From positions 417,064 to 481,063 of the forward strand of contig NZ_QFOB01000002.1 of the NCBI RefSeq assembly GCF_003248515.1: a stretch of 64,000 nucleotides of DNA, in the 5' to 3' direction. The translations under genes were made by a program, and so were the position numbers. Of the stretch, positions 23,291-56,142 are shown piece after piece. The DNA is from Sphingomonas sp. Its GTDB lineage: Bacteria; Pseudomonadota; Alphaproteobacteria; Sphingomonadales; Sphingomonadaceae. Each line of letters starts with the position of its first letter. Positions within the stretch are counted from its first letter, which is position 1. The notes below the pieces were generated by a model that saw only the letters and a program-made list of their open reading frames with translations, ran no database searches and had not been told where the DNA came from.

Positions 23291-23887
23291 ATGACGACGC
23301 GACGCGATTTTCTGCAGGCTTCGGCGATCATCGGTGCGGCGGGCATGGGCGGCGGCGCGCGCGCATCGTTTGGCATTATCGGCGCGCCGGAGCCCCGTCT
23401 CCTGATCGCCGACCGGCGTTATCCGGCGAGCCGCGCCTTCGGTGGTGCGGCCGCCGCCGGAGGCCGAACTGTCGTGATGACGGGGGGTGACGTGAGCGGC
23501 CTGTGGACCGGGCGGCTTCGTGCGCTCTGGCAAGATGGCGAGGCCGAGATTGCCGGCATGACCGGGTACGACGTTCTTTTCTGCCTCGAGCGTTTCGCCT
23601 GGGATCATCGCCATTGCGTGATCGCGCTGGTCGATCATGTTCCCGATGCCGCGGGCGGCTATCAGCATGTTGCGAGGACAAGCAGTTGCGAGCGCCTGGC
23701 CGAGGCGCTCGCGGCCGCACGTGCCGATTTTCCGGGCTTTCAGGCCCAGGCGCTCGGGGTTTTCGATCCCGAGCCTTCGCGCTGCCCGCCCAGCCACGCG
23801 CCGGGAAAAGGGATGGGGGGCGAACCGCTTGCCAGCTGGATCATTGCCCCCCGATCGCGCATCCGCCTGACCGGAGCATCGGCATGA
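23291..23887 (+). CDS. Hypothetical protein with twin-arginine signal, PchX-like position in front of a VAO-family flavoprotein
   Basis: MTTRRDFLQASAIIGAAG; the stop overlaps the next ATG (ATGA). Confidence 0.65.
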   Translation: MTTRRDFLQASAIIGAAGMGGGARASFGIIGAPEPRLLIADRRYPASRAFGGAAAAGGRTVVMTGGDVSGLWTGRLRALWQDGEAEIAGMTGYDVLFCLERFAWDHRHCVIALVDHVPDAAGGYQHVARTSSCERLAEALAAARADFPGFQAQALGVFDPEPSRCPPSHAPGKGMGGEPLASWIIAPRSRIRLTGASA

Positions 23888-25500
23888 TCCCGTCCGGTGT
23901 CAGCGCATCCGATTGGACGAAGGCACTCGCCGAATTCCGCACGGCGGTAGGGCCGGACTGGGTTTTCACCAGCGACGAGGATGTCGCTCTTTACCGCGAC
24001 GCTTATTCTCCGGAATGGGGGGAGCCGACAGAACGGCTGGTCTCCGCCGCAATAGCCCCGGTGGAGCGCGAGCAGGTTCAGGCGATCGTCCGTACGGCCA
24101 ACCGCTATCGCATTCCGATCTATCCGGTCTCGACCGGAAAGAATCTGGGTTATGGCGGTTCGGCGCCCAATCTTTCGGGCAGCGTCGTGCTCGATCTGAA
24201 GCGAATGCGGAAGATCGTCGAGGTTAACGACAAGCGCCATTTCGCGATCGTAGAACCGGGCGTCTCCTATTTCGATCTCCATCATCACATCCGCGCGAAC
24301 AAGTTGCGATCATGGATCGACTGTCCCGATCCGGGCTGGGGCAGCCTGGTTGGCAATGCGCTGGATCATGGTGTCGGCCATACGTTGACGAGCTATCGCG
24401 ATCATTTCCAGTCGCATTGCGGCATGGAGATCGTGCTGCCCAATGGCGAGTTAATGCGCACGGGCATGGCGGCGCTGCCCGGATCGGAAACGTGGGCGGA
24501 TTTTCGCTACGGCTTCGGACCGCATGTCGACGGACTGTTCGGTCAGGGCAATTTCGGCGTCGTGACGAAGATGGGCTTCCATCTCATGCCACAGCCCGAG
24601 GCCTATCTCTCACGCGAGGTGCTGCTGCCCCGCCGCAAGGACATCATCGCACTCACGGAGATCGTCAACGAACTCGAATATCTCGGTATCATCGGCATGC
24701 CCGAATATTCGAGCCCGCTCGCGCCCTTCCGCTATACGAACATGGATACCGAGCTGAAGGCGCTGCTTGCGCGGCCGGACTCCTTCACCACCGATATCGT
24801 GGACGAATTTGCGGCGCGCCGCGGCCGGGCCGTCTGGGCCGTCAAGCTTCAGTTTTACGGCGCGCCGGAGGGGATATGCGCGAACTGGGAGAATGCGCGC
24901 TCGAGGCTGGAGAAGGTGATTCCCGGTCTGCGCGTCGGCGAGCAGGAGGATCTCCGCTTTCCCCTGACCGACGAGCAGGAGCAAGCCGTCGGCAAGAAGG
25001 TGCTCGTCGGCATACCCAACATGAACGTCTTTTCGCTTGGCGCGCGATCCGATCTCAATCCCCAGCCGCGTGATGGGCATCTGCTGTTCACCCCCATCAT
25101 TCCGAAAGACGGGGAGTCCATCCTGAAGGCCCAGTCCCTGTTCGCGGATGCGCTGCGCGGTACCGATCTGGAAACCGTCTATTCCGCGATCACCGCGCCT
25201 TACACCTGGATTTACCGTGCGTTCGTGTTGGCGGCGGGCTTTCCCGTCTCGCGGGGGGATTCGGCGATCAATCGGCGATCGCGCGATGCGATGCGCCGGC
25301 TTATCGATCTGGGTGCTGCTCATGGCTATGGCGAATATCGCACACCGCCGCTGTTTCAGGATCAGGTGGCCGGAACCTACGGCTTCAACGACGGCATCCT
25401 TCGCCGCTTCAGCGAAACGCTGAAGGATGCCGTGGACCCCAACGGCATCATCGCCGCCGGGCGCGGCGGGATCTGGCCCCGGCATCTGAGGAAGGCATGA
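23884..25500 (+). CDS. VAO/PCMH-family 4-alkylphenol oxidoreductase flavoprotein (PchF/EUGO-like)
   Basis: STGKNLGYGGSAP, VEPGVSYFDL, DCPDPGWGSLVGNALDHGVG, DGHLLFTPI, YGEYRT and LKDAVDPNGIIAAGRGGIWP. Confidence 0.9.
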   Translation: MIPSGVSASDWTKALAEFRTAVGPDWVFTSDEDVALYRDAYSPEWGEPTERLVSAAIAPVEREQVQAIVRTANRYRIPIYPVSTGKNLGYGGSAPNLSGSVVLDLKRMRKIVEVNDKRHFAIVEPGVSYFDLHHHIRANKLRSWIDCPDPGWGSLVGNALDHGVGHTLTSYRDHFQSHCGMEIVLPNGELMRTGMAALPGSETWADFRYGFGPHVDGLFGQGNFGVVTKMGFHLMPQPEAYLSREVLLPRRKDIIALTEIVNELEYLGIIGMPEYSSPLAPFRYTNMDTELKALLARPDSFTTDIVDEFAARRGRAVWAVKLQFYGAPEGICANWENARSRLEKVIPGLRVGEQEDLRFPLTDEQEQAVGKKVLVGIPNMNVFSLGARSDLNPQPRDGHLLFTPIIPKDGESILKAQSLFADALRGTDLETVYSAITAPYTWIYRAFVLAAGFPVSRGDSAINRRSRDAMRRLIDLGAAHGYGEYRTPPLFQDQVAGTYGFNDGILRRFSETLKDAVDPNGIIAAGRGGIWPRHLRKA

Positions 25501-25886
25501 CGATGCACATCGCCAAGGCGGCCTTCCTGATCGCGGCGCTTTCGCCTTCGGCTGTGCGGGCCGCTCCGGATACACGGCATATGGCCGCGCTGCAGGAAGA
25601 AGGCAGAGCGGTCTTCAAGGAAAATTGTGCCTCCTGTCACGGACCGGGCATCGGAAATCCCGGTCTGGCGCATAAGCCCGGCACGGCGGCGTTGCAGGCC
25701 AAATATGCGGGCGCTGTTCCCGCACTGCTGGAGCAACGGACGGACATGGCGCCGGAAATGATCGCCTATTTCGTTCGCAACGGAATTTCGGTGATGCCGA
25801 TGTTCCGCAAGACCGAGGTGAGCGACGCGCAATTGCGTGCGCTGGAGGCCTATCTCACGCGCAACAGCAAGCCGCCGCGCCGGTGA
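25497..25886 (+). CDS. Monoheme cytochrome c, PchC-like subunit
   Basis: Sec signal, CASCH, PGTAALQAKY and VRNGISVMPMFRKTEVSD; translationally coupled to the flavoprotein. Confidence 0.88.
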   Translation: MTMHIAKAAFLIAALSPSAVRAAPDTRHMAALQEEGRAVFKENCASCHGPGIGNPGLAHKPGTAALQAKYAGAVPALLEQRTDMAPEMIAYFVRNGISVMPMFRKTEVSDAQLRALEAYLTRNSKPPRR

Positions 25887-25934
25887 GACGGGTCCGGAAG
25901 CGGCGCGACCGAACGATGGGAGTGGAGGGCAAGG

Positions 25935-26783
25935 ATGAAGGGTGATGATCCCCGGCTGAAGCCGCAATATCGGATGCCGAGAGTGTTCGGCGCGCTGCCT
26001 GGCCCGCGCAATGTTCCGAAGGACAGGCAGCATCTCCTCAACCGCCAGCGCAATCTCGCGCTTTCGATGACGATGCTGACCGACCGGGACGCGCTGGTCG
26101 AATTGCTTCCGCCGGGCTGCGTGCTGGATGGCGAGCCGCTGCTGACGCTCAATGCGCTTTACATGACCAACATCGGCTGGCTGGCCGGGCGCGGCTATGC
26201 GCTGATCAGCGCGGGCTTTCGGATAGCCCGTGATTCCCCGTCGCAGGGCCGGTTGACGGGCAATTTCCTCGCAGTCGTGTGGGAGAATATGGCCGATCCG
26301 ATCCTGACGGGTCGGGAGGAACTCGGGTGGGCGAAGCTCTTTGCCGAAATCCCCGACCCCATCGCGATCGACACCGATCATGTCGGCAGCGCAGGCTGGG
26401 ATGGATTTCGCTTCCTGGATTTCAGCATAAGGGAGTGCCGCGAGACGGATCCGTCGCCGGCCACAGCTTCCGGCAGCTTCCACTACAAATATGTTCCCGA
26501 AACCGGCGCCCTGGACCGGGCCGACGTTGAATATCTCGAATATTCGCCGCCCGGCGCCTTCGCGACGGGCTATGGCGGGATGACGGTCAGGCAACGCTTC
26601 ACCGGCCGGGGCGATTTCGTTTTCCATCCGGCGCGCTGGGAGGACATTCCCTTCCAATATCCGATCATCAACGCGCTGGCGGCGCTGCCACGCCTCGAGA
26701 TGCGGGAGGCAAGCGTCACGATCAGCGAAGCTGATGGAAAGATTGGGGATCCCGGAGGTGGCGCGCTGCGGAAGGTGACATGA
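25935..26783 (+). CDS. Acetoacetate decarboxylase-like superfamily protein
   Basis: YRMPRVFG, WLAGRGY and WENMADPILTGREELGWAKLF (Schiff-base Lys); paralogue of 45746-46585. Confidence 0.75.
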   Translation: MKGDDPRLKPQYRMPRVFGALPGPRNVPKDRQHLLNRQRNLALSMTMLTDRDALVELLPPGCVLDGEPLLTLNALYMTNIGWLAGRGYALISAGFRIARDSPSQGRLTGNFLAVVWENMADPILTGREELGWAKLFAEIPDPIAIDTDHVGSAGWDGFRFLDFSIRECRETDPSPATASGSFHYKYVPETGALDRADVEYLEYSPPGAFATGYGGMTVRQRFTGRGDFVFHPARWEDIPFQYPIINALAALPRLEMREASVTISEADGKIGDPGGGALRKVT

Positions 26784-27000
26784 CGATATGTGCGTTCCGG
26801 CGGCGCTGTGCGGACGGTTTCGCTTTCTTCGTTAGTAACATCGTTCGGAACAATAGCCCTGAGATCAAGAGACGGGGGTGAAGCTCTACGTTCGGTGCAC
26901 GGCTGCTATGCAGTTGGCGCCGCTAGTCCACCCCTACGGAACAAGCCAAAAAGTCAGTTCGGATCGTCGACAGAATCGATCTTGAAACGGGGAGGATATC

Positions 27001-29364
27001 ATGAGGCATGCAAAGGCACTGTTATTGTCGTCTGCGTTGGCATTGGTGCCCGGCGCGGTCATGGCGCAGGACGTTGCGCCTGTGGACAAGCGATCGCCAA
27101 AGTCCGCGGCGCGATCATCCGCGCAGCAGGCATCTTCGCGGGAGGCGGACAGCGGGCTCGAGGAGATCGTGGTCACGGCGGAGCGGCGCGAGGCGAGCGT
27201 GCAGCGCACGGCCGTCGCGATCTCGGTGATCGGTGGCGCGGAACTCGCCAAGGCTGGCATCGCAAATCCCACCGCCCTGCTGGATTCTCTGCCGGGGCTG
27301 GATATCACCCGCTCCAATGTTAACGCGAACCTCAGCCTGCGTGGCCTGGGCGGTGGTGGCAGCACCCAATATGCTGATCCGGTGGTCGCCTTCAACGTGG
27401 GTGGCGTGCCGCTGAGCCGAACCTTCTCGCCGGCGTCTGCCGTCTATGACGTGCAGCGCGTCGAACTGCTGAAGGGGCCGCAGGGGACGCTCTATGGTCG
27501 CAACGCCACCGTGGGCGCCCTGAACGTCATTCCCAATCAGCCATCCAACCATTTCGAAGGCGGCGCCACGGCCCAGTTCGGCAACTATTCCTCGAAGAAC
27601 TTCAACGGATATCTCAACGCGCCCCTGTCAGACGGCTTCGCGGCCCGCATCGCGGGGACATATAACAAGCATGATGGCTATCTTACCAACGGCTATGACG
27701 ATGCCGACAATTGGGGCGCGCGCCTGAGCCTGCGGGGCGAAGTGACGCCGAACCTGACGGTGCTGGCATGGGCCGATCTCTACCGGGATCGGTCGCGCGG
27801 CCCGGGTACGATCGTGCGATATCCGACGCCGGGGCAGGCCTATCAGTTCCCAAACAACCCGTGGTTTTCCTATTCCCCGGCTGGCTGCGGCAATCCCGCT
27901 CTTTGCCCCACCTGGGGGGACAGCGCCGGCGCCACCTTCGCGGCGCCGTTCCGTTCGCTTTCCGTGGTCGAGGATACGGGCTTTGTCCGTATCAACCAGG
28001 ATATCTATGCCGGTCAGGTCGACTGGGATATCGGCTTCGCCAAGCTGACCATCCTTCCCGCGCACGTCGATACGGCGGTGGATACGCGCACGTTCAGCGG
28101 TGGCCTTACCTATAATCTGCGCAACCGCACCTATCAAAATTCGGTCGAGACCCGATTGGCTTCGAATAATGATGGTCCGCTGAAATGGCTGATCGGCGGC
28201 ATCTATTTTTACGAGCATATCAATTCGCGGCAGGATACGTTCGAGCCGAACGGATATCAGGTCCTCTACAGCCCCAATCTGACGGATGAGAGCGTCGGCC
28301 TGTTCGGGCAGGCGACCTATTCGATCACCAGCAGGCTGCGGGCCACAGGCGGCATTCGCTATACCAGCGAGACGAAGAAGCAGGACGGTTTCACCCTGCT
28401 GGACGGTGCCTTCACCGCGACGAGCTGTCCGTCGCCCGGTATTTTCGTCACGGGATCGACGACGGCGCTCGGTTATCTCTATCCTGTCGGCTATTGCCAG
28501 GTGCCGAACCAGGGGCGACTGCATTTCACCAACGTCAGTTACAAGGCCGGCGTCGAATTCGATCTCGCCCGGCAATCCCTGCTCTATGCGAACGTGAGCA
28601 CCGGCTTCAAGGCGGGCGGATTTTCGCCGGCGCTGCCGCCGAACACCTACAAGCCGGAAAAGCTGACAGCCTATGTGATCGGATCCAAGAACCGCTTCTT
28701 CGACAACAAGCTGCAGGTGAACCTCGAACTCTTCTACTGGGATTACAAGGATCAGCAGATCAGCCTGCTCCAGGCGCTACATCCCGCCGGGCAATCCTCC
28801 TACCCCGTGAATGTCGATGGCTATGTGAAGGGTGCGGAACTGGATGTTTCTGTTCGGCCCTTGAGCAACAGTGTCATATCGCTGGATCTCCTCTATGAAC
28901 GCGGCAAATATGATGTCTATCCGACGGCGATCTCGTCAGTCGGGACGGTGGGCGGACTGACCGATTATCCGCGCGTCAATCTGCCTCGCTGGTCGGGCAC
29001 GGTGAAGGCCGAGCAGGGCATACCGCTCAAGAATGGCGGCCGTGTCGTCATCGGTGCGGATACCCATTTCGAGAGCGGCACGTGGTTGCGCCCCGTGGCG
29101 GAGGCCGCGAGGCGACCGGGCGAATATCGTGATCCTTTTGCCACCGTAAACGCCTCGCTGGGCTGGGAGAGCAGCGATGCGAAGCTGAGCGTTACCCTGT
29201 TCGTCAACAATATCGGCAACAAGGCTGTGATCGGCACGGGAACGGGCGGCGGGCTCGTCGCACCGGGCACATTCTATCGGCCCGCCGGCAATCCGGCCGA
29301 CGCGCGCTTCGCGACGCTCCAGCCGCCTCGCACCTATGGCGTTCGCGCGGGCGTCAAATTCTAG
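27001..29364 (+). CDS. TonB-dependent receptor
   Basis: Signal peptide, TonB box EEIVVTAERR, RVELLKGPQGTLYGRNATVG and C-terminal PRTYGVRAGVKF. Confidence 0.95.
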   Translation: MRHAKALLLSSALALVPGAVMAQDVAPVDKRSPKSAARSSAQQASSREADSGLEEIVVTAERREASVQRTAVAISVIGGAELAKAGIANPTALLDSLPGLDITRSNVNANLSLRGLGGGGSTQYADPVVAFNVGGVPLSRTFSPASAVYDVQRVELLKGPQGTLYGRNATVGALNVIPNQPSNHFEGGATAQFGNYSSKNFNGYLNAPLSDGFAARIAGTYNKHDGYLTNGYDDADNWGARLSLRGEVTPNLTVLAWADLYRDRSRGPGTIVRYPTPGQAYQFPNNPWFSYSPAGCGNPALCPTWGDSAGATFAAPFRSLSVVEDTGFVRINQDIYAGQVDWDIGFAKLTILPAHVDTAVDTRTFSGGLTYNLRNRTYQNSVETRLASNNDGPLKWLIGGIYFYEHINSRQDTFEPNGYQVLYSPNLTDESVGLFGQATYSITSRLRATGGIRYTSETKKQDGFTLLDGAFTATSCPSPGIFVTGSTTALGYLYPVGYCQVPNQGRLHFTNVSYKAGVEFDLARQSLLYANVSTGFKAGGFSPALPPNTYKPEKLTAYVIGSKNRFFDNKLQVNLELFYWDYKDQQISLLQALHPAGQSSYPVNVDGYVKGAELDVSVRPLSNSVISLDLLYERGKYDVYPTAISSVGTVGGLTDYPRVNLPRWSGTVKAEQGIPLKNGGRVVIGADTHFESGTWLRPVAEAARRPGEYRDPFATVNASLGWESSDAKLSVTLFVNNIGNKAVIGTGTGGGLVAPGTFYRPAGNPADARFATLQPPRTYGVRAGVKF

Positions 29365-29552
29365 GCGGAAGGCGGGTGTTCCGGGCTGATCGGCATGGCC
29401 TTGATGGGGCGATGCCGATCAGGCTCAATCACAGGGCCGAAGCAATTTCGAAGCGGACTGAACGGCTTGCCGGCCCGAAACGGAGAGCGGCGGGGAAAAT
29501 CGGGCCGGTCTAGCAGACCGCCCCCCCTCCCACGCGTGGGAGCGAAGGTCCG

Positions 29553-30428
29553 CTATGCGCGACTTCGCCAAAAATCGAGGACATGCTTGTCGAACATGTC
29601 GGGGAATTCCCAATAAGCGGAATGTCCCGCGCCGGGTATGACGAAGAAGCGGCCTTTGGAAAGTCGCCGTCTATGCTCGTCAAACAGGGGCGGCGGCGCG
29701 TAGGAATCCGCATCCCCCGTGATCCACAGGCTGGGCATGGTGAGGCGACCCAGTTGTTCCCATTCTAATGTTCCTCGTGGTTGCGGCCCCAGCGGCGCCG
29801 TCCTCGATGTGCGCTCCAGTTCCTCCCATCGGGCCACGCCATCCGGGTTGGCCGCGCGGTAGATCGGGCCGAGTTCGCGGAAGGAGGCAGGGAGCTGGCT
29901 GAACGGCGCCGGGCGGAGCGCGTCATAGCGTCTGCGAAAAACCGGATCGGCCATATTCCCGATATGGTTTGCGATGACGAGGCTGAGGATCCGATCCGGA
30001 TGGGCCACCGCGAAATCCAGCACCACACCTCCGCCGGCCGCGCTGCCGAGCGCGTGGAACCGGTTCAGCTTAAGGGCATCGACGATGCGGAGTAGATCCG
30101 CTGTCTGATCCGGCTCGCTTCTGAACGTCTCCGTGCGCGATCGGGCATGGTCCCGCCGCGACCAGCTGATGACGCGATAGCCGGCGCTTGCATAGTGCGC
30201 TTCCTGCGCCTCCCAGACGAGCGCGCTGCCGGTCACCGGATGCGCAAGCAGCACCGGGATGCCCGTGCCGCCGCTGTCGCGCACATAGAGAGAGGCTTCC
30301 CCCACGTCGATCCAGCTTTCCCGAGGGGACGGCAGCGCTGCCGACAACCGTCCCATGATCGCCATCGTCGCGATCCCCGCTCCCAGCGTCTGCCGTCGTG
30401 TCATCACGACGCTTCGATCGACCATCAT
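29553..30428 (-). CDS. Alpha/beta-hydrolase-fold protein with Tat-like signal and non-canonical nucleophile elbow
   Basis: MTRRQTLG, LAHPVTGS, ALGSAAGG, ITGDAD and AGHSAYWE. Confidence 0.8.
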   Translation of the reverse strand: MMVDRSVVMTRRQTLGAGIATMAIMGRLSAALPSPRESWIDVGEASLYVRDSGGTGIPVLLAHPVTGSALVWEAQEAHYASAGYRVISWSRRDHARSRTETFRSEPDQTADLLRIVDALKLNRFHALGSAAGGGVVLDFAVAHPDRILSLVIANHIGNMADPVFRRRYDALRPAPFSQLPASFRELGPIYRAANPDGVARWEELERTSRTAPLGPQPRGTLEWEQLGRLTMPSLWITGDADSYAPPPLFDEHRRRLSKGRFFVIPGAGHSAYWEFPDMFDKHVLDFWRSRA

Positions 30429-30490
30429 CCTGCTCCCGCTCTCTTATGCTGTCCTTGATGGTGATCGACCGTTTCGATCCTCGCAACATA

Positions 30491-30510
30491 AATTAGCACG
30501 TAGGAGAATT
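30491..30510. promoter_or_regulatory. 20-bp region-wide operator candidate
   Basis: AATTAGCACGTAGGAGAATT in the hydrolase / cytochrome c divergent region. Confidence 0.6.
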
Positions 30511-30732
30511 AAATGTCTTGGTCGGTCCGGAGCGATGCCGGTGGGTGGCGAAGCGCGCGTGGGACGGAAGCGGCCTACCGAAGACGTGACGGGGCGCACG
30601 CGACGGGGAGGAGGGGAGCGGGCGGGGCGGCCTGCCACGAAGCGTATAGCTGATACCTCCGCTGCCGGCCTGTGAGGCGCCGGCCGGCTTTGTATCATGC
30701 ACGCGACAGAGAACAGATCAGGCGAGGGAAAT

Positions 30733-31101
30733 TTGCTCCGGATATTGTTGATGATGGCCGTGATCGCCGGTGCGGCACCACAGGCCGCGCTGGCGCAGCC
30801 TGATCTTGCCAACGGCAAGCGTGTGTTCACGACCTGCTCCTACTGCCACGGCGCCAATGGAGAGGGCGCGGGAGTCGGGCCGCCGCTGAAGGGGGTCGTC
30901 GGCCGGAAGGCCGGCGCCGCGCCCGACTTTCCCTATAGCGAGGCGATGAAGACGGGCGGCATCACCTGGACGCCGGAACGGCTGGAAGCCTTCCTCGCGC
31001 ATCCGATGCAGGACGTGAAAGGCACGCGGATGGCCTTTCCCGGCGTTTCCCGGCCGAAGGATCTGGCGGACGTCATCGCCTATCTCAAGACATTGAAATG
31101 A
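30733..31101 (+). CDS. Class I cytochrome c (c2-like)
   Basis: Signal peptide, CSYCH, VGPPLKGVVGRKAG, ITWT and KGTRMAFPG; TTG start after GAGGG (alternative ATG at 30697). Confidence 0.88.
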   Translation: MLRILLMMAVIAGAAPQAALAQPDLANGKRVFTTCSYCHGANGEGAGVGPPLKGVVGRKAGAAPDFPYSEAMKTGGITWTPERLEAFLAHPMQDVKGTRMAFPGVSRPKDLADVIAYLKTLK

Positions 31102-31141
31102 GCCGCCCCACGGGCGCACTCCGGAACAGATTGGGCTGAAG

Positions 31142-32584
31142 ATGTTGACGAGACGGACGATGCTCGGCGGCGCGGTTGCGGCTGCTCTTGTCGAGGGACG
31201 CGGGCTTGGCACGGTGGCGCGCAGCGTGGCGGCGCAGGGCGTGCCCGGCGCCGCCACGCTGCGCAAGCGGCTGGGCGCACGGATGCTGATGCGCGGCAAT
31301 CCCGATTATGAGGCGATGCGCCAGCTTGCCGTGTTCAACGCGCGCAAGCCCAATCGCTTTCCCAACGCGATCGTGATGGCCGAAAGCGTCGATGATGTGC
31401 AGAATGCCGTGCGCTACGCCAAGGCGCGGGGTTGGAAGGTCGGTATTCGATCCGGCGGCCACGGGTGGGTCGGTTCGCATATGCGCGACGGGGCACTGCT
31501 GATCAGCCTCGCCAATCTGCGCGAGTTGCGCGTGGAACCGGAGACGATGACCGCGATCATCAGCCCGTCCATCACGGGAGACGGGCTCAACGCCGTCCTG
31601 CAGGGCGAGCACAAGCTGATGACGCCCTCCGCGCATGGCGTGAGCGTCGGCATGGGCGGCTTCGTGATGTGTGGCGGCCATGGCTGGAATTCGCGCGTAT
31701 GGGGACCGGGGTGCCAGCAACTCAAGGCGATCGACGTGATCGATGCCGACGGCAATCTGATCCACGCCACCGCCGAAGAACACAATGATTGGCTGTGGGC
31801 GGCGCGCGGCGCCGGCCCGGGCTATTTCGGTGCGGCCGTCCGCTATTATCTTCAGGTGCATCCGATGCCGCAGGTGATGCGCCGCAACGGCTATACCTTC
31901 GATCTCTCGCATCTCGAGGAGGTGACGGCCTTCCTGCGGAATAATACTCCGAAGTTCCCCGCGCATCTTGAGGTAGTGATGCTCGGCCGGATGATCGATG
32001 GCCGGCCGGGCCTCTTCGTCGGTGCCTCCGGTTTCGGCAGTGAGGAGGAGGTACGCGGCGCGCTGGACGCTTTCGATGCCGCGCCCGTCTTCCGCAAGGC
32101 GGCCACCCGCAAGGTGCAGCAGCCCTTCGTGGCGCCGTCGCGCTATGAATCGCCGACCGAAAGCCTTCCCGCCGGCTATCGCATCGTCATCGACAATATC
32201 TGGACCAACGCGCCTTCGGAGCAGCTCGTACCGCTGATGCGCAGCCTCTTCGAAAATCTTCCGGGTGAGCGCTTCAACATCTTCTTCCAGTGCTGGGGCC
32301 CGGTGCGCGAGGTTCCGAATGCTGCTTATTCGGTGCAGGGCGAAATCTATATTTCGGCCAACGCCGTCTACATGGACGAGGCGGAGGATGCGAAGAACGA
32401 TGCCTGGGCGCTCGATGCGATCCGCAGGCTGCATCCGATCTCGGTGGGCGCGCAGATGAACGACGAAAATATGGCGCTCGATCCGCAGCGCTATCTTTCG
32501 GAAGAGGCATCGAAAAGACTGGAGGAACTGCGCGCCAGATACGATCCTGAAGGGCGCTTCGTATCGTTTCTGATGAAGGCGTGA
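31142..32584 (+). CDS. Tat-exported BBE/6-HDNO-like FAD-linked oxidoreductase
   Basis: MLTRRTMLGG, IRSGGH (covalent-FAD His), WAARGAGPGYFG and C-terminal LRARYDPEGRF. Confidence 0.88.
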   Translation: MLTRRTMLGGAVAAALVEGRGLGTVARSVAAQGVPGAATLRKRLGARMLMRGNPDYEAMRQLAVFNARKPNRFPNAIVMAESVDDVQNAVRYAKARGWKVGIRSGGHGWVGSHMRDGALLISLANLRELRVEPETMTAIISPSITGDGLNAVLQGEHKLMTPSAHGVSVGMGGFVMCGGHGWNSRVWGPGCQQLKAIDVIDADGNLIHATAEEHNDWLWAARGAGPGYFGAAVRYYLQVHPMPQVMRRNGYTFDLSHLEEVTAFLRNNTPKFPAHLEVVMLGRMIDGRPGLFVGASGFGSEEEVRGALDAFDAAPVFRKAATRKVQQPFVAPSRYESPTESLPAGYRIVIDNIWTNAPSEQLVPLMRSLFENLPGERFNIFFQCWGPVREVPNAAYSVQGEIYISANAVYMDEAEDAKNDAWALDAIRRLHPISVGAQMNDENMALDPQRYLSEEASKRLEELRARYDPEGRFVSFLMKA

Positions 32585-32760
32585 GATGCGCCCGTCTTGG
32601 CCGCGCCTAAACGGACTCGGTCAGACTGATATGCAATTCGCGGCATGGTTCGCCGCGACGCATGCGAATACACCCGCATCATAAATCGACCGACACGAGG
32701 CAAGGCCGCTCCACTGCGGGGGTTTCGATGTCGACATCCAAAAAATGAAGGGGAGGTTGT

Positions 32761-35181: not shown

Positions 35182-35195
35182 TCCTTCTCCTCCCG

Positions 35196-35229: not shown

Positions 35230-35244
35230 CCGGAGGCACGCGGA

Positions 35245-43472: not shown

Positions 43473-43498
43473 AGCGGCACGGGAAGGGAGGCATCGAT

Positions 43499-44272: not shown

Positions 44273-44274
44273 TC

Positions 44275-45144: not shown

Positions 45145-45164
45145 AGACAGAGGGGAGACCGACC

Positions 45165-45725: not shown

Positions 45726-45745
45726 TCCCCAAAGGAATTCTACCG

Positions 45746-46585: not shown

Positions 46586-46595
46586 GGGCAAGGCG

Positions 46596-47669: not shown

Positions 47670-47695
47670 AGCCCCGCGTCGAGGGAGAGGGCATC

Positions 47696-48301
47696 ATGAT
47701 TCAGGCGGATATCGGACGGCGGACATTGCTCGCTGCGGTCGCGGGCGTCGCGGGCGCAGTCTATGCCGGTGTGGCACGGGGTGCCCCTCCGGTCGGTGCG
47801 CGGACCAGCCCGCGTCAGGCATGGGCGCATCTCGACGGCAAGATCGCCCTGCGGGGAAATCGTCCGCCCGTCGCGGACGCGATCGACATGCTGATGATTC
47901 AGGAGGCCTTTGGCCGTTACGGCATCGCCTATGACGAGGGGCGCGACGCGGTGCTCGCCGGGCTTTTCACCGAGGATGTTGTGGTCGACGTCGCCGAGGG
48001 ATCGGCCAAGCCCTTCCAGTCGGTGAAGGGGCATGCGGCGGTCATGCACAATTTCACCAGCGCCTTCTCCCAGCAGCGCGACCAGCGCCGTCACTGCTTC
48101 AGCAATGTGCTGGTCGAGGAGGTAACGGGCGATGTTGCGACGGCGCTCGCTTACGCGATCGTCACCGTCGCCGCCGATGGCCTCACGCTCGGCGCGACCG
48201 TCATCTACACGACGCGCCTGCGCAAGCAGGATGGTCTCTGGCGCTTCGCCTACATGTTCATCGGCATGGACGCCTATACGACGCCCAAGCCGAAGGTCTG
48301 A
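47696..48301 (+). CDS. SnoaL-like/NTF2-fold protein with Tat-like leader
   Basis: IGRRTLLAAVAG, RYGIAYDE...LFTED, RHCFSNV and LRKQDGLWRF. Confidence 0.72.
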   Translation: MIQADIGRRTLLAAVAGVAGAVYAGVARGAPPVGARTSPRQAWAHLDGKIALRGNRPPVADAIDMLMIQEAFGRYGIAYDEGRDAVLAGLFTEDVVVDVAEGSAKPFQSVKGHAAVMHNFTSAFSQQRDQRRHCFSNVLVEEVTGDVATALAYAIVTVAADGLTLGATVIYTTRLRKQDGLWRFAYMFIGMDAYTTPKPKV

Positions 48302-48305
48302 AGGG

Positions 48306-49634
48306 TCAGCGGGCGGCCGCCTTGGGGCTCGAGAAGACGAATTTCGGCAGGAAGGTCACGCAGATCAGTGCCGCCGTCATCGCGCCGCCGGTTAGATAGC
48401 GGCAAATGTCGTAGCTGCCCGAAAGATCGCGCAGATAGCCCAGCAGGATCACGCCCGTCCCGTTGCCCAGTGCGCTGGCGGCGAAGGTCAGGCCATAGAT
48501 GGCGCCAAACGCCTTCAGCCCGAAATAGCGCGAGACGAGATAGGCATTCTGGCTGATCTCCCCGCCGAGCCCGAGGCCCATCATTACCGCCGCAGGCAGT
48601 AGGATATGCTTGTCGTGCGCGCTGTAGAGTATCACAACACCGATCAGCGCGGAGGCGAAATAGGGCGTCAGTACGCGCGGCGTGTTCAGCCGATCGATCA
48701 CGAAGCCGGACGAGAACTGGCCGACGATCACGCCCGCGAAGGCGCAACTCATTACCGTCGTCGCGTCACTCACGCTCAGGCCACGCTCGGTCAGCAGCGG
48801 CACTGCGTGCGCCATCGTGGCGAGCAGCGCCATGGATCCGAACATGATCGCGGCGAAGAGCTGGTAGAAGGTGCGCTGGCGCAAGGCTTCCCCGCGCGTA
48901 TAGCCTTGCTGGCCGAAGCGGGCCCGCTGCTCGGTTTCGGCCTGCTCGCCGGAGCTTGCCGCGTGATCCGCGACGAGCATGGCCTTCGGCGTTCGCGCCA
49001 GCAGCGCCACTGCCGGGAAACCGATGGCGAGCACGATCAGGGCGATGCCAATAAAGCCTCCACGCCAGCCATATGTGTTGATCAGCGCCTGCGTCACCTT
49101 GGGCATGATCGTCTGGCCGAGGCCGGCGCCCAGCGCGACAGCGAGGCCCAGCACGAAACCGCGATGCCGATCGAACCATAGCGAGATCAGCTTCGCATAA
49201 GCGGGCGAGGCATGCATGGAGACAGGCACCGCGATCAGGATCTGCACCAGCAGGAATTCCCACGCATTGGTCACCTGGCTGAGCAGCAGATAGGCGATGC
49301 TGAACAGCACGATGCCGGGCAGCACCACCTTGCGCAGGCCGAACCGGTCGACCAGCCGTCCGCCGATCGGCACGCAGATGGCGTTGAGCCACAGCGCCAC
49401 GGCCAGCGCGGTCGAAAGCATCGTGCGATTGGTGTGCAGCGCTTCGGGCAGGATGCGCAGGAAATTGCTGTTGGTGGCCGCGACCATCACATTCGGCCCG
49501 GTGAGAAAGCCGAACCAGGCTCCCAGCGCAGCCAGAATTGCAGGTCGCGTGAATTCGCTGCGTGCCAAGATCCTCTCCCTTATGCCCGGGTTGTCCGGTT
49601 TTCCACATGCCTGGGCTGACTGCCTAGTGCGCAA
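48306..49634 (-). CDS. MFS transporter (MCT/OxlT-like)
   Basis: GRLVDRFGLRK, WFDRHRGFVLG, YGWRGG and SRYFGLKAFGAIYG; 12 TM pattern. Confidence 0.88.
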   Translation of the reverse strand: MRTRQSAQACGKPDNPGIRERILARSEFTRPAILAALGAWFGFLTGPNVMVAATNSNFLRILPEALHTNRTMLSTALAVALWLNAICVPIGGRLVDRFGLRKVVLPGIVLFSIAYLLLSQVTNAWEFLLVQILIAVPVSMHASPAYAKLISLWFDRHRGFVLGLAVALGAGLGQTIMPKVTQALINTYGWRGGFIGIALIVLAIGFPAVALLARTPKAMLVADHAASSGEQAETEQRARFGQQGYTRGEALRQRTFYQLFAAIMFGSMALLATMAHAVPLLTERGLSVSDATTVMSCAFAGVIVGQFSSGFVIDRLNTPRVLTPYFASALIGVVILYSAHDKHILLPAAVMMGLGLGGEISQNAYLVSRYFGLKAFGAIYGLTFAASALGNGTGVILLGYLRDLSGSYDICRYLTGGAMTAALICVTFLPKFVFSSPKAAAR

Positions 49635-49649
49635 ACTGTATATCTGACT

Positions 49650-49669
49650 AATTAGCGCATGTGATAATT
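49650..49669. promoter_or_regulatory. 20-bp region-wide operator candidate (most symmetric-core copy)
   Basis: AATTAGCGCATGTGATAATT in the MFS / VOC divergent region. Confidence 0.65.
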
Positions 49670-49763
49670 TTTTTCTTGTCTCGCGGCGACGGCCGATCCA
49701 TTCATCGATGGAGAGGGCGCGAGGCGCAGCACATCAGGCCGACGCCCGCAGAGAGGATTTTCC

Positions 49764-50792
49764 ATGGCGATACTCGGTATCGAAAGCGTCGTTTATGGCG
49801 TCGATGACGTCGCGCTCTGCACGCGTTTCTGGGACGATTATGGTCTGGTCCGTGCGGACCGGTCGATCGACGAGCCGGTGTGGGAACTGCCTTCGGGATC
49901 TCGCATCATCGTTCGTGCCATCGACGATCCCGATTTGCCGCCGGCCCATTTCCAGGGCTCGGGCGTGCGGGAATGCTTCCTGGGCGTTGATACGGCCGAA
50001 AATCTGGAAAAGCTCGTCGCGCGGATCGCGGTGGATCGCGAGGTCTGGCGCGATGCGGATGGCACAGCGCATTTCATCGATCCGGACGGCAATCCGATGG
50101 GGCTGCGCATCTGGGCGAAGCGGCCCGTGATGTGTCGCCCCGATCCCGTCAACGCGCCGGATCATATCGTGCGGCTGAACCAGCATCGCAAATGGCGGAT
50201 GCGTGCCCGCCCGAAGACGATCAACCACATCGTTTATTTTTCCGACAATTATGTCGAGGCCTATGAATTCTATCGTGACCGGCTCGATTTCAGAATGACC
50301 GATCATTCCAAGGCGAACGGCATCTTCGCCCGTGCGAACGGAACCTATGAGCATCATACCTTATTCTGGCTGACCACCCAGCATCCGGGCACGCGCGGCA
50401 AGCGTGGCTATGCGCATATCGCCTTCGGCTGCGAGGACGTGGACGAGGTAATGGTCGGCGCCAATTACATGCAGGACAAGGGCTGGTCGAACGTCCGTCC
50501 GTTCGCCGCGGCGCTCAACCGGCATCGCATCTCGTCTGCCATGTATTATTATTTTCCGTGCCCGGCCGGCGGCGACGCCGAATATCACGCGGATTCCGAT
50601 TATCTCGATGACGCGTGGATCCCGCGCGTGTGGGAGATGGCGTTCGGCGCGACGATCTGGGGATCGTCTTCGTCCGGCTTCTTCGCGCACAAGCCCGCGA
50701 CTTACGATGTGCAACTCGATCCCGACGAGGCGAGCCTCGAGGCGTGCCGCCATCTGGGCAAGGACGGGAAAGACGTTCCCAGCATCTACTGA
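49764..50792 (+). CDS. Two-domain VOC-family extradiol-type ring-cleavage dioxygenase
   Basis: INHIVY, EHHTLF, AHIAF and [22 protein letters not shown] (His/His/Glu metal triad pattern). Confidence 0.8.
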
Positions 50793-50853
50793 CATTCGCG
50801 GTGGCGGATCTGATCGCCCTGCGGCGCGCCACCGATTCCAAGGAGTTCACGTC

Positions 50854-52182
50854 ATGGCAACCTATCTGAAGCGTGGTGCGACGGCCGAGGCTCGTGCCGA
50901 GGGGGATCGCAAGGTCCGCGATATCGTCGAAGCCACGCTGGCGGACATCGAAACGCGCGGCGACGCGGCTGTGCGCGATCTTTCGATCAAGTTCGATAAG
51001 TGGGATCGCGAGAGCTATGTGCTGACCGCGCAGGAAAAACAGGATTGTCTGGATCAGCTTTCCGGGCAGGATCTGAAGGATATCGAATTCGCGCAGGCGC
51101 AGGTGCGCAACTTCGCGCAGATCCAGCGCGACAGCATAAAGGATGTCGAGGTCGAGACGCTGCCCGGCATCGTCCTGGGCCACAAGAATCTGCCGCTCAA
51201 TGCGGCCGGCTGCTATGTGCCCGGCGGCAAATATCCCTTGCTGGCGTCCGCCCATATGTCCGTGATCACCGCCAAGGTGGCCGGCGTGCCGCGCGTGATC
51301 ACTTGCGCCCCGCCTTTCCAGGGCAAGCCGGCCCCCGCGATCGTGGCCGCGCAGGTCATGGCAGGGGCCGACGAAATCTATGCGCTCGGCGGTATCCAGG
51401 CTATTGGCGCGATGGCGCTCGGCACGGAGACGATCCGGCCAGTCGATATCCTCGTCGGCCCGGGCAACGCCTTCGTCGCGGAGGCCAAGCGCCAGCTCTA
51501 CGGCCGCGTGGGCATCGATCTGTTCGCCGGGCCGACGGAGACGCTCGTCATCGCCGACGAGATCGGCTGTGACGGCGAACTTGCCGCCACGGACCTGCTG
51601 GGCCAGGCCGAGCATGGGCCGGACAGCCCCGCCGTTCTGCTCACCAATTCGGAAAAGCTCGCGCGGGAGACGATGGCGGAGGTCGAGCGGCTCCTGCAGA
51701 TCCTGCCGACCGCCGATTATGCCCGCAAGGCATGGGAGACCTATGGCGAGGTGATCGTCGCCGACAGCTATGAGGAGATGGTCAGGATCGCCGACGACAT
51801 CGCTTCCGAACATGTTCAGGTGATGACCGCCGACCCCGATTATTTCCTGAAGAACATGACCAATTACGGCGCCCTGTTCCTCGGTGCGCGCACCAACGTC
51901 AGCTACGGGGACAAGGTGATCGGCACCAATCACACGCTGCCGACCAAGAAGGCGGCGCGCTATACGGGCGGCCTCTGGGTCGGAAAGTTCATCAAGACCT
52001 GCACCTATCAGAAGGTGCTGACCGATGAGGCGAGCGCGATGATCGGCGAATATTGCAGCCGCCTGTGCGCGCTGGAAGGTTTCGCCGGCCATGGCGAGCA
52101 GGCGAACATCCGCGTGCGGCGTTATGGCCATCGCGATGTTCCCTATGCCGGCCGCGCCGAGCCACTCATCACCGCGGAATGA
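50854..52182 (+). CDS. hpsN: Histidinol-dehydrogenase-family enzyme of the HpsN (sulfopropanediol 3-dehydrogenase) type
   Basis: [38 protein letters not shown] and [13 protein letters not shown]; followed by an SDR and not by his genes. Confidence 0.7.
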
Positions 52183-52949
52183 GGATGGAACTCCCCCGCA
52201 CGCCCAGCTTCCGCCTGGATGGCCGCCGCGCCCTGGTGACGGGGGCCGGGCGCGGGATCGGGCTCGCGCTGGCGGTCGCTCTGGCCGATGCCGGCGCGGC
52301 CGTGACGCTCGCCGCACGCACGGCCGCCGAGATCGAGGCTGGGGCCGGGGCGATCCGCCTTGCCGGAGGAGAGGCCGAGGCGGCGATGCTCGACGTTTCG
52401 GATTCGGCGGCGGTGTCCGCTTTCTTCGATGGCCGGCCAGCCTTCCACATTCTCGTCAACAATGCCGGCACCAACCGGCCCAAGCCGATGCAGGACGTGG
52501 GCGAGGCGGATTATGATGCCGTGCTCGATCTCAACGTGAAGGCGGCCTTCTTCGTCGCACAGGCTTGTGTGCGGCGGATGCTGGCGCAGGGCGTAGCCGG
52601 CAGTCTCATCCATATCGGCAGCCAGATGGGGCATGTCGGCGGCCCGAACCGCTCCCTTTACTGCGCTTCTAAATGGGCGATCGAGGGAATGAGCAAGGCG
52701 TTCGCGCTGGATCTCGCGCCGCACGGCATCCGATCCAACACGATCGCGCCGACCTTCATCGAAACGCCGATGACGCGACCCTTTTTCGAAGACCCGGCCT
52801 TCAAGGCGAGCGTGCTGGCCAAGATCAAACTGGGCCGACTCGGCACCGTCGAGGATCTCATGGGCGCGGCGCTGTTTCTCGCCACCGATGCTTCGGCGCT
52901 CGTCACTGGCACCAGCCTCGTCGTCGATGGCGGATGGACTGCCGATTGA
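52179..52949 (+). CDS. SDR-family oxidoreductase (HpsO-like by position)
   Basis: [35 protein letters not shown] and YCASK; ATGA overlap with the hpsN-like gene. Confidence 0.85.
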
Positions 52950-54142: not shown

Positions 54143-54526
54143 TCATTTCGCCGGAGGGTGAGCCAGCAAGATCGCCACGATCGCATTCGCTTGCTCGGGC
54201 GTAACCTGGGTCTGCGGCGGCATGGTCGCCTCGCCCCATTTACCCACGCTGCCCTTGAGGATGCTCTGCTTCAGCCGGTCCACATCTCCGGGAGTGGGGG
54301 AGGGGAAGGCCGCTCGGATCGACATGATCGGCGGCCCCACGCGCATATAATCGACGGCGTGGCAGTTGGAGCATTGATGTGCGACCAGCGTGGTATCGAG
54401 CGTGAGATTCTTGTCCACGTCCGGGCGCGGCGCGCCTTCGGTGTCGGCGGCAGTCTCGCCCGGTGCTTTCTGGCAACCTGCGGCGAGGATGCTTCCCATC
54501 AGCGCGAGCGCGAGCGCGATCCTCAC
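54143..54526 (-). CDS. Lipoprotein cytochrome c (c551/c552-like)
   Basis: Lipobox LAAGC, CSNCH, VGPP and GSVGKWGEATMPPQ. Confidence 0.82.
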   Translation of the reverse strand: MRIALALALMGSILAAGCQKAPGETAADTEGAPRPDVDKNLTLDTTLVAHQCSNCHAVDYMRVGPPIMSIRAAFPSPTPGDVDRLKQSILKGSVGKWGEATMPPQTQVTPEQANAIVAILLAHPPAK

Positions 54527-54604: not shown

Positions 54605-54624
54605 AATTATTCGATACGCTAATT
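54605..54624. promoter_or_regulatory. 20-bp region-wide operator candidate
   Basis: AATTATTCGATACGCTAATT (reverse complement AATTAGCGTATCGAATAATT) in the cytochrome c / flavoprotein divergent region. Confidence 0.65.
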
Positions 54625-54642
54625 TAAAGCGAATGGGAGAGG

Positions 54643-56142
54643 ATGGATATGGTCGGTACGGTGGAGCGGCGGAGCGTGCTGAAGGGCATGGCCGGCGCCG
54701 GGGCGGTGGCGGGTCTTTCCCGACTGCTCGTGGCCTGTGATGGCCGTGGCCGCCCGCTTTCCCCCGATACGAAGCAGGCGCTCAACGATGCGGTGGAAGG
54801 GGATGTCTATTGGCGGGGTGACGAGGCCTATGAAATGGCGCGCGGTCGCGCCGCCTATCGCGCGAACAAGCCCAGACGCTATCCGCAGGTGATCGTCCTG
54901 CCGGAGACCGACAAGGATGTGGTTGCGGCGGTCAAGTTCGCCGGGCAGCATGATCTCAGGGTCACTACCCGTTCCGGCGGGCACAGCTGGTCTTCCGCGC
55001 ATATCCGCGATGGCGTGCTGATGATCGACATGTCGAAGATGCAGGAGATCAGCGTCGATCCGGAGAGCAAGACTTTGTGGGTCAATCCTGGCGTGATCGG
55101 ATCGACGATCAACGCCCAGCTCAAGGATTATGGCCTGATCATCCCCACCGCGCATCATCCCTCTCCGGGAATAGGCGGTTTCTCGATGAACGGCGGTTTC
55201 GGCTGGAATTCGCGCCTGTGGGGCAATGGCGCACGGCAGGTGATCGCGCTCGATGTCGTGACCGCCGATGGCGAGCTGCTTCGGTGCGACAAGGATCGGA
55301 ACAGCGATTTCTGGTGGGCGGCGCGCGGCGGCGGCGCGGGCTTCTTCGGAGTCGTGACGCGCATGCAGATCCAGGCCCACGACCGGCCCAAGGTGTGGAA
55401 GGCGAGTGTACTGAGCTTCGATGATGCGCATGGCGTGTTTGATGAACTGATGGCCTGGGCGTGCGATCTCGTGCCGCGCATCCCGCCTCATATGGAAATG
55501 GTCATGACGACGACAGCGAACAGCCGCGAGACGGGCGAGCCCGTCTCGACGCGGATTACCGCCGCGGCGCTGGTGCTGACTGACGACGAGGCGGAGGCCG
55601 ATGCGGCGCTGGCCCTGTTCGACAGCTGCCCGGTGAAGGACAAGGCGAACTTCGTCGTCGATAAGGCGCCCACCACGCTGGAGGCGCGCTATGACAGCGG
55701 CTTCAAGGCAGATCCCGCAGGCTATCGCTTCGCCGCCGACAATTTCTACACCGACGCGCCCACCGAAAAGCTCGTTCCCCGGCTACGCAAGGTGTTCCTC
55801 GATCTCCCGAGCCCGCACACCCATACCTTCTGGTTCGCCTGGGGCCCGATCAAGCCTTTTTCGATCGACATGGCGCTGTCGATGCAGGGGCCGATCTATG
55901 TCGGCACCTATACGCTGTGGAGGGACCCGGCCGAGGATGAGGCGATGGAGGCGTGGCCGCCGGCGCGGATGAAGGAACTGGACGATATTTCGCTGGGTGG
56001 TCAGCTCAACGATGAGAACATGCTCCACCACCCCCAGCGCTATTTCACTCCGGAGGCCTTTGCCAAGCTGGAGCGGCTCCGGCGGCAGCATGATCCGAAG
56101 GGGCGCTTCGAAGGCTTTCTCGGCAAGCCTATGTCGGCCTGA
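54643..56142 (+). CDS. Tat-exported BBE/6-HDNO-like FAD-linked oxidoreductase (paralogue of 31142-32584)
   Basis: VERRSVLKG...LLVAC, TRSGGH, GFGWNSRLWG, WAARGGGAGFFG, QLNDENM and HDPKGRF. Confidence 0.88.
   Translation: MDMVGTVERRSVLKGMAGAGAVAGLSRLLVACDGRGRPLSPDTKQALNDAVEGDVYWRGDEAYEMARGRAAYRANKPRRYPQVIVLPETDKDVVAAVKFAGQHDLRVTTRSGGHSWSSAHIRDGVLMIDMSKMQEISVDPESKTLWVNPGVIGSTINAQLKDYGLIIPTAHHPSPGIGGFSMNGGFGWNSRLWGNGARQVIALDVVTADGELLRCDKDRNSDFWWAARGGGAGFFGVVTRMQIQAHDRPKVWKASVLSFDDAHGVFDELMAWACDLVPRIPPHMEMVMTTTANSRETGEPVSTRITAAALVLTDDEAEADAALALFDSCPVKDKANFVVDKAPTTLEARYDSGFKADPAGYRFAADNFYTDAPTEKLVPRLRKVFLDLPSPHTHTFWFAWGPIKPFSIDMALSMQGPIYVGTYTLWRDPAEDEAMEAWPPARMKELDDISLGGQLNDENMLHHPQRYFTPEAFAKLERLRRQHDPKGRFEGFLGKPMSA

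Follow-up and report, generated by a model that had tools for sequence, protein, structure and literature searches.

Three flavoprotein-cytochrome c gene modules in a Sphingomonas genome: two EncM/BBE-like members as candidate periplasmic, cytochrome-coupled dehydrogenases

The genes described here lie in a 64,000-nucleotide stretch (the window) of the 4.57 Mb genome of Sphingomonas sp. (assembly GCF_003248515.1, contig NZ_QFOB01000002.1, positions 417,064 to 481,063); all positions given are those of the window. The stretch carries three flavoprotein genes (F1, F2 and F3), three c-type cytochrome genes (C1, C2 and C3), two genes for TonB-dependent receptors (T1 and T2) and one for a cytochrome b561. 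Each flavoprotein and its cytochrome are referred to as modules 1 to 3, and coordinates are summarized in Table 1. A preliminary description, made without database searches, had joined the three modules, the receptors, the b561 and an MFS transporter into one periplasmic, respiration-coupled system for the oxidation of aromatic compounds. F1, F2 and F3 match PF01565 with 95, 94 and 119 bits (Pfam; cut-off 26.4), which places them in the VAO/PCMH superfamily. The single covalent flavin adenine dinucleotide (FAD) family first assumed holds at this level, but two subfamilies are present, F1 being of the PCMH/VAO 4-phenol type and F2 and F3 EncM/BBE-like. The cytochromes match PF00034/PF13442 and contain one CxxCH motif apiece; C3 stays below both cut-offs (26.1 against 27 bits for one family; 24.5 bits and no stretch above the threshold for the other) and matches a cytochrome c551 in the PDB (E 8e-9). 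The adjacency of each flavoprotein to a c-type cytochrome of its own was confirmed, as was the position of the b561 gene (PF01292) after T2. T1 and T2 both match PF00593 and PF07715 and are 44% identical to each other. Placement of the modules immediately upstream of the receptors stands for module 2 (gap of 176 bp) but not for module 1, from which T1 is separated by the gene of an acetoacetate-decarboxylase (ADC)-fold protein.

According to a crude gene caller, 42 of the 4,029 genes of the genome bear a CxxCH motif, so a random gene has at most a chance of about 2% of such a neighbour and three pairings are far above expectation. Seven PF01565 genes were found in the genome. The three in the window alone have a directly adjacent cytochrome gene (0/4 for the others, one of which has a CxxCH gene two genes off).

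F2 and F3 share 38-40% identity; the similarity of either to F1 is marginal. The best solved relative of both is EncM (E 1e-29 to 1e-34), and the predicted structure of F3 (pLDDT 90.6) has EncM as its top fold match (TM 0.79, 24% identity), with BBE and 6-hydroxy-D-nicotine oxidase (6-HDNO) also matched. The linking His of the R(S/G)GGH motif of BBE-like enzymes is present as His107 in F2 and His114 in F3 and is predicted to form the 8-alpha FAD link. At the 6-S-Cys position (the Cys166 column) F2 has Gly and F3 has His, which speaks against bicovalent FAD; many relatives keep the Cys. No C-terminal BBE domain (PF08031) was detected in either protein at E 1e-4 (Pfam). On these alignments F2 and F3 are best called EncM/6-HDNO-like members of a BBE-related branch.

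The columns of BBE Gly164 and Val169, the combination of BBE-type oxidases, are occupied by Ala164 and Val169 in F2 and by Ala170 and Pro175 in F3. The Ala residues are assigned to the BBE 164 gate because the Gly-x-Cys-x-x-Val motif of a Gly-type relative aligns on BBE 164-169 (alignment over BBE 159-197) and because scores switch towards PDB entry 4pzf, titled 'G164A variant, a reticuline dehydrogenase'. Against this entry and wild-type 3d2d, F2 scores 76.6 and 74.8 bits and F3 68.5 and 67.2 bits, whereas the order is reversed with a Gly-type query (20.9 and 23.4 bits). Ala at BBE position 164 denies access to O2, as stated in the available text of two reports (PMC4898691; PMC7312611). The G164A exchange makes BBE a dehydrogenase. 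F2 and F3 carry twin-arginine (Tat) leaders, all three cytochromes have hydrophobic leaders, and TatC is present in the genome. The periplasmic location first suggested is likewise predicted here for F2, F3 and the cytochromes, and the suggested dehydrogenase character agrees with the dehydrogenase-type flavin-site residues present in all three flavoproteins.

Conservation of the pairing was assessed at loci from a genome scan (80 of 512 confirmed matches taken in), a metagenome scan (80 of 280) and whole-genome searches. The neighbourhood set comprises 212 distinct flavoprotein sequences, with F2 and F3 themselves left out of the counts. A cytochrome was scored when an open reading frame (ORF) with a CxxCH/CxxxCH motif and a Pfam cytochrome c match lay within 2 kb, and a negative score required at least 1 kb on both sides; the truncated L144, just under the cut-off, was counted as paired. 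Inspection by eye changed two Tat calls, with L200 gained and L068 dropped; L216 is doubtful. Members with a Tat leader and Ala or Pro at the gate have a cytochrome within 2 kb at 18 of 28 scorable loci (8 have none, 2 are ambiguous and 3 more were too short). The corresponding counts are 0/8 for Tat-leader Gly members (1 too short), 0/8 for leaderless Ala members (3 too short) and 0/123 for leaderless Gly members (36 too short). Leader and gate residue were also compared at the protein level. From 378 proteins, 21 partial ones were dropped and the 357 near-full-length ones kept (17 of them unclassified); in this set 129 of the 162 Tat-leader proteins have Ala and 28 Gly, and 166 of the 178 leaderless proteins have Gly and 8 Ala. 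The proposed gene-neighbourhood check thus came out in favour of a conserved BBE-like/cytochrome pairing, which tracks export together with the Ala gate.

Homologues of C2 (39-50%) adjoin the F2 relatives L118, L140 and L193, and homologues of C3 (29-43%) lie in identical divergent layout beside the three closest F3 relatives, L027, L192 and L204. In distant clades the neighbours are dihaem or SnoaL-dihaem cytochromes, the cytochrome type following the flavoprotein clade. Fusions of a SnoaL domain with a dihaem cytochrome c directly follow distant Tat-leader Ala members of the BBE-like group (L011:322-1485, L015:2517-4103, L022:2574-4148, L023:2920-4092). On a quick tree of 94 rows (all Tat rows, all non-Gly rows and a subset of Gly rows) the pairing trait requires 6 changes, and a single clade for the 20 paired and 3 undetermined rows was rejected (approximately unbiased (AU) test, p 4e-5). 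The labels for this test were set before the tree was made and the test was run after it had been viewed; gains and losses are indistinguishable. Judged from these neighbourhoods, the pairing is present in several clades with different cytochrome types.

F2 and F3 are accordingly read here as Tat-exported periplasmic dehydrogenases of a probably aromatic substrate that would pass electrons to C2 and C3 and not to O2, with module 1 as a separate unit; we put the probability of this at roughly 0.68. Several observations weigh against it. Independent-pairs tests never opposed the trend, but none was significant among the results listed (3-5 supported pairs, median p 0.5-1); they are underpowered, and the raw counts therefore overstate the evidence. 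The eight Tat-leader Ala/Pro relatives with adequate flanks and no cytochrome within 2 kb include the next-closest F3 relatives L028, L107 and L123, and four F2 relatives of an acidobacterial clade are without a nearby cytochrome. Together with the eight leaderless Ala members, the former eight demonstrate that Ala does not imply a cytochrome. Flavoprotein-cytochrome fusions were found in 0 of 378 proteins (lengths up to 1.75x searched). F2 retains the oxidase-type Val169, the leaders were called from motif and hydrophobicity, and C3 is divergent from F3, which excludes co-transcription of the two. The available text of PMC12224317 also holds that oxidases and dehydrogenases are hard to tell apart reliably from sequence. 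Some long proteins had been considered as fusions and were rejected, the extra length being other domains or upstream extensions. The leaderless Ala-gate members L003-L009 and L194-L196 form a clade without cytochrome neighbours, possibly a group of cytoplasmic dehydrogenases.

Module 1 is, on sequence criteria, a 4-phenol-oxidising flavocytochrome of the PCMH type. The earlier statement that no described pathway has this architecture fails for this module, whose kind is known from PCMH, PinAB, PinVW and BpfAB. F1 gives full-length PDB matches to 9h40 (E 3.5e-171) and 8s7p (E 1.7e-117) within a range of E 1e-80 to 1e-171 for VAO, EUGO and PCMH. Entry 9h40 bears the database label 'p-cresol methylhydroxylase'; we take it to be pinoresinol hydroxylase. 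The C-terminal Tyr-Arg motif of the 4-phenol-oxidising subfamily, presumably involved in phenolate binding, is kept as GEYRT in the alignments of F1 with both entries. Counted along the alignment, Asp149-Pro150 (flavin N5) and His399 of F1 correspond to Asp150-Pro151 and His387 of 8s7p, and Table 1 of PMC7617285 gives D150, P151 and H387 as the VAD residues. According to the available text of that report, VAD remains reduced in air for hours and is converted to an oxidase by P151L. Pro150 at the N5-contact position gives F1 the Pro/Ile signature of 4-phenol dehydrogenases (VAD/PCMH type), and its Asp-Pro/His set is the dehydrogenase signature of VAD, with His399 as the predicted FAD link. This His, aligned with His387 of VAD, sets F1 apart from PCMH sensu stricto, which has 8-alpha-O-tyrosyl FAD and no linking His. 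A small cytochrome c gene adjoins F1, as in PCMH-type flavocytochromes. Among 280 genomes of the family, 15 contain 22 F1-like loci, and a C1 homologue adjoins 20 of the 22.

F1 has no leader. The gene before it, which the preliminary description lacked, encodes a Tat-motif protein, X1, for which neither a Pfam family, nor a Foldseek match at E 0.001, nor a named family in an Atlas search was found; its model (pLDDT 84) resembles generic alpha/beta folds (best Z 5.4). An X1 homologue lies beside 17 of 17 F1-like genes of at least 47% identity (10 genomes), with tandem pairs sharing one copy, and in an alignment of 25 sequences conservation of its RR motif is at least 90%. X1 thus has the marks of a Tat hitchhiker, a conserved twin-arginine leader on the small partner of a leaderless flavoprotein. 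In FAD glucose dehydrogenase a hitchhiker subunit takes the leaderless flavoprotein through Tat (PMC6719666, in the text available). Since F1 is leaderless, the RR motif of X1 is conserved and this parallel exists, we infer that X1 may be a Tat carrier or accessory subunit that brings F1 to the periplasm. A preprint (10.1101/2025.09.08.674859, available in part) offers the guess that the Sec/SPII leader of the cytochrome guides PCMH-type flavoproteins out, a route that would be hard to reconcile with a folded flavoprotein. The literature search gave no description of a Tat-leader partner like X1 for PCMH-type flavoproteins. Small X1-like twin-arginine proteins without a Pfam match stand beside leaderless PCMH-type flavoproteins at L249-L258, L262-L270, L279 and L280. 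In six family genomes two PCMH-type flavocytochromes in tandem share a single X1-like gene (L251/L269, L252/L266, L254/L270, L255/L267, L256/L264 and L257/L268).

The genes around F1 travel with it. On a Roseomonas plasmid (L279) and in genome G174 the set of GntR, ornithine-cyclodeaminase-like (OCD), SSADH, DHDPS, X1, F1 and C1 genes occurs without F2 or F3 in the stretches examined. The SSADH, GntR, OCD and DHDPS counterparts are 73, 44, 46 and 55% identical on the plasmid and 59, 46, 40 and 70% in G174. A pseudoazurin gene lies near the Roseomonas counterpart of module 1.

A second conserved unit is built around module 3. Of the 29 window genes at 29553-58633, 23 have counterparts (43-90%) in the F3 cluster of Novosphingobium sediminicola (G998; DSM 27057 of this species is a cultured strain with the module-3 cluster) and 21 (38-90%) in that of a further genome, G928, whose contig ends inside the cluster. 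Both clusters include T2, b561, C3, F3 and the monooxygenase, and G998 also has the VOC dioxygenase (79%). Neither contains F2/C2 or module 1; in G998 the top F1 homologue lies on a separate contig, and a search of G928 at E 1e-60 gave no F1 homologue. By this gene content b561 and T2 belong with module 3. Because the two clusters lack modules 1 and 2, the region appears to have been assembled from two or more units: a conserved module-3 cluster, the operon of module 1, and module 2 as an addition.

The first alternative to be weighed is the original proposal, that the three modules, both receptors, the b561 and the MFS act in coordination as one pathway in the periplasm that handles a single class of compounds. 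All of them are co-located within 33 kb and the receptors are paralogues. The F2 relative L140 has homologues of the MFS and the ADC-fold protein of the cluster beside it, and L224 one of the dioxygenase; the Roseomonas module-1 locus has distant homologues of the SDR (48%), dioxygenase (33%) and monooxygenase (40%). That b561 and T2 accompany module 3 in two genomes upholds part of the proposal; module 1, however, keeps its own gene set elsewhere, modules 1 and 2 are missing from the G998 and G928 clusters, and the three modules occur together in none of the loci examined. A single pathway is on balance doubtful. The MFS proposed to import the product, that beside module 3, belongs to the Bcr/CflA efflux family and is not an evident importer; a better candidate importer is the other MFS (48306-49634, 68% in G998).

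It is unlikely that F2 and F3 are exported oxidases, or dehydrogenases linked to quinones or dyes, with cytochromes that serve other enzymes or are merely co-regulated. The Tat-leader Ala/Pro relatives without a cytochrome and Val169 of F2 would fit this, as would the use of O2 by the closest solved relatives, EncM and 6-HDNO, and the possible quinone route through b561. On the other side, a cytochrome accompanies 0 of 131 scorable Gly-type members, its type tracks the flavoprotein clade, and it is the direct neighbour in most paired loci. Detoxification of an antimicrobial plant or fungal compound, with export by the Bcr/CflA pump and incidental electron capture, is improbable. In its favour, an efflux-type MFS adjoins module 3 in this genome as well as in two relatives. 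Against it, the cluster also has an FAA hydrolase, an ALDH, TonB receptors and a dioxygenase of the ring-cleavage type, and pcaIJF-like genes follow in this genome; these fit assimilation, although the two roles are compatible with each other.

The preferred reading, cytochrome-coupled dehydrogenation by F2 and F3, can be put as a sequence of steps. Substrate would enter through T1 and T2, and, by the chemistry of the family, hydride would pass from an activated C-H to the His-linked FAD; in F1 a p-quinone methide would form and add water. If mutagenesis of BBE is a guide, Ala in the Gly164 column would shut the O2 pocket of F2 and F3. The reduced FAD would then be reoxidised in one-electron steps by the cognate cytochrome and the electrons passed to a haem-copper oxidase; two COX1-family genes are present in the genome. 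The weakest step is a possible connection of b561 to the quinone pool. At typical potentials electron flow from a c-type cytochrome to quinone would be uphill, so b561 is more plausibly a separate route. Exported hydrolase and decarboxylase homologues may trim the product before uptake, and the monooxygenase, the VOC dioxygenase and lower-pathway enzymes would finish the degradation in the cytoplasm. Leaderless F1 would reach the periplasm with X1.

Tat-like leaders on the alpha/beta hydrolase, the LigW-like decarboxylase homologue and the SnoaL protein fit such a periplasmic stage. Related clusters in two other genomes contain a leaderless Gly member (L213) or a Tat-leader Gly member (L219) and no cytochrome, beside the same cupin, ADC, SDR and ALDH genes, which suggests that the reaction itself is preserved and that its location and oxidant differ between clusters.

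Periplasmic flavoenzymes coupled to cytochromes are known from the PCMH subfamily and the FAO family, and modules 2 and 3 would extend the strategy to the BBE/EncM-like branch. For bacterial members of that branch no description of such enzymes was found in the open-access literature, to which the search was confined. PCMH-type pairs described in sphingomonads are PinVW (PMC12607616) and BpfAB (10.1101/2025.09.08.674859). Module 1 resembles PchCF, PinAB, PinVW, BpfAB and VAD, as far as the available texts describe them, in its leaderless 4-phenol flavoprotein that overlaps a small cytochrome c gene and in the N5 Pro, and the pseudoazurin gene near its Roseomonas counterpart echoes azurin as acceptor of PCMH. 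Its linking His, in contrast, is that found in VAD and in the oxidases, and it is accompanied by the conserved X1, which those texts do not describe. F2 and F3 fall outside the 4-phenol subfamily. With EncM, 6-HDNO and BBE they share the fold and the GGH His motif, and with EncM the lack of 6-S-Cys, but they are only about 24% identical to EncM, have Ala in place of Gly at gate 164, carry Tat leaders and adjoin cytochrome genes. The known BBE-like dehydrogenases Phl p 4 and AtBBE-like 15 come from plants and have the 169 gate closed.

The closest functional parallel is the FAO family (NicA2/Pnao with CycN), in which, by the available text of PMC12224317, members with a Tat leader and an adjacent cytochrome are true cytochrome-using dehydrogenases and those with Tat alone are oxidases. 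There, too, leader and cytochrome mark dehydrogenases within an 'oxidase' family in several clades. The FAO fold, however, is unrelated to that of F2 and F3, natural cytochrome fusions occur, and that text gives no clear active-site marker, whereas here the gate residue covaries. The ifc (isoflavone) and fde (naringenin) clusters resemble the region at the level of gene families only, as set by family descriptions (FAD monooxygenase, glyoxalase-fold dioxygenase, cupin, alpha/beta hydrolase), and the available parts of PMC11069340 mention neither an exported flavoprotein-cytochrome pair nor a TonB receptor.

A wider reading would be that the bacterial BBE/EncM branch has repeatedly become respiratory through a Tat leader, Gly-to-Ala exchange at 164 and varied cytochromes (c2-like, c551-like, dihaem and SnoaL-fused dihaem), that it carries out the first, periplasmic step for a conserved catabolic cluster not described before, and that X1 represents a family of Tat carriers; this is offered tentatively, at somewhat less than even odds. 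If cytochrome coupling in this branch is confirmed, nature offers pairs of closely related enzymes with differences both at a known O2 gate and in the presence of a cytochrome partner, which permits a direct test of how one residue sets oxidase against dehydrogenase and would supply the marker that the FAO study could not find. Such enzymes would appear inactive when screened by the usual O2/H2O2 assays. The conserved cluster suggests a catabolic route that has yet to be characterised, and X1 provides a testable answer to the export of leaderless PCMH-type flavoproteins.

Table 1. Features of the flavoprotein-cytochrome region (window positions; percentages are identities)
Feature	Position	Strand	Basis or remark
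SSADH-like ALDH, module-1 context	18882-20348	-	Pfam
GntR, module-1 context	20455-21174	-	Pfam
OCD-like, module-1 context	21239-22246	+	Pfam
DHDPS-like, module-1 context	22249-23259	+	Pfam
X1, twin-arginine-leader protein, no Pfam family	23291-23887	+	Overlaps F1 start
F1, 4-phenol-oxidising VAO/PCMH-family flavoprotein, no signal peptide	23884-25500	+	PDB matches, residue mapping
C1, monohaem cytochrome c	25497-25886	+	Pfam; 4-bp overlap with F1 stop (ATGA)
ADC-fold protein between module 1 and T1	25935-26783	+	PF06314
T1, TonB-dependent receptor	27001-29364	+	Pfam
Alpha/beta hydrolase, twin-arginine motif, in conserved cluster	29553-30428	-	Pfam; 54-56% in G998/G928
C2, cytochrome c2/c-550-like, monohaem, hydrophobic leader	30733-31101	+	Pfam
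F2, EncM/BBE-like flavoprotein, Tat motif	31142-32584	+	Alignments, residue mapping
T2, TonB-dependent receptor	32761-35181	+	Pfam; 70-71% in module-3 clusters of G998/G928
Cytochrome b561	35245-35817	+	PF01292; 54% in clusters of G998/G928
LigW-like aromatic-acid decarboxylase homologue, Tat-like leader (KR variant)	35832-36917	+	PDB 4icm, E 3e-79
Conserved catabolic block, mostly leaderless: LysR, CMD-like, TetR, FAA hydrolase, ALDH, SDR, amidohydrolases, cupin, ADC-fold protein, Tat-motif SnoaL, MFS, VOC-fold dioxygenase-like, HisD-like	38060-52949	.	Pfam; 55-90% in G998 except SDR at 52179 (34%)
Bcr/CflA-family (efflux-type) MFS, convergent with C3	52934-54142	+	TIGR00710, 240 bits (cut-off 201)
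C3, cytochrome c551-like, monohaem, lipoprotein-like leader	54143-54526	-	Divergent from F3, 116 bp gap
F3, EncM/BBE-like flavoprotein, Tat motif, possible lipobox Cys	54643-56142	+	Alignments, predicted structure
Genes downstream of F3: FAD monooxygenase (PRK06847 subfamily), SDR, glyoxalase-fold protein	56258-58633	+	In G998/G928: monooxygenase 70-73%, glyoxalase-fold 63-69%

Several further features of the cluster were recorded. The LigW-like homologue is followed by a second amidohydrolase (36929-37933), also with a Tat-like leader, and similar Tat-leader amidohydrolases flank the F2 relatives L079 and L229; export would be unusual for an aromatic-acid decarboxylase. An intradiol-dioxygenase-domain protein with an RR-type/signal-like leader directly follows b561 in the two related clusters (L282:10815-11657, L283:13956-14795) and is absent from that position in the window. 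The HisD-like dehydrogenase (50854-52182) has counterparts in G998 (80%) and beside the leaderless relative L175 (61%) and is probably not an enzyme of histidine biosynthesis. A Bcr/CflA-family MFS also adjoins the F3 relatives L027 and L223. Genes that mark the pin pathway, those for a GMC oxidase, a DUF3237 decarboxylase and a lignostilbene dioxygenase, were not found among the 58+4 ORFs of the window (Pfam).

In 17 congeners no F2/F3-like gene of comparable score was found, one distant leaderless Gly-type match being the only hit, and at the DNA level the block gave only short matches in 40 relatives. A promoter and terminator scan of 20400-40000 returned counts at chance level. Just upstream of the region (15319-18872) lie genes for a SnoaL protein, a cupin-AraC regulator, a VanA-like Rieske oxygenase and a LysR regulator, the last of which (17901-18872) is a DNA paralogue (66%) of the LysR gene at 38060-39031. 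The left part of the window (338-15021) is an unrelated sugar locus with a tryptophan-halogenase-family gene, alpha-galactosidase, a ROK regulator, GH2 and sugar-phosphate genes. The right-hand end of the window (58638-63994) carries pcaIJF-like CoA transferase and thiolase genes and indolepyruvate-ferredoxin-oxidoreductase-like genes.

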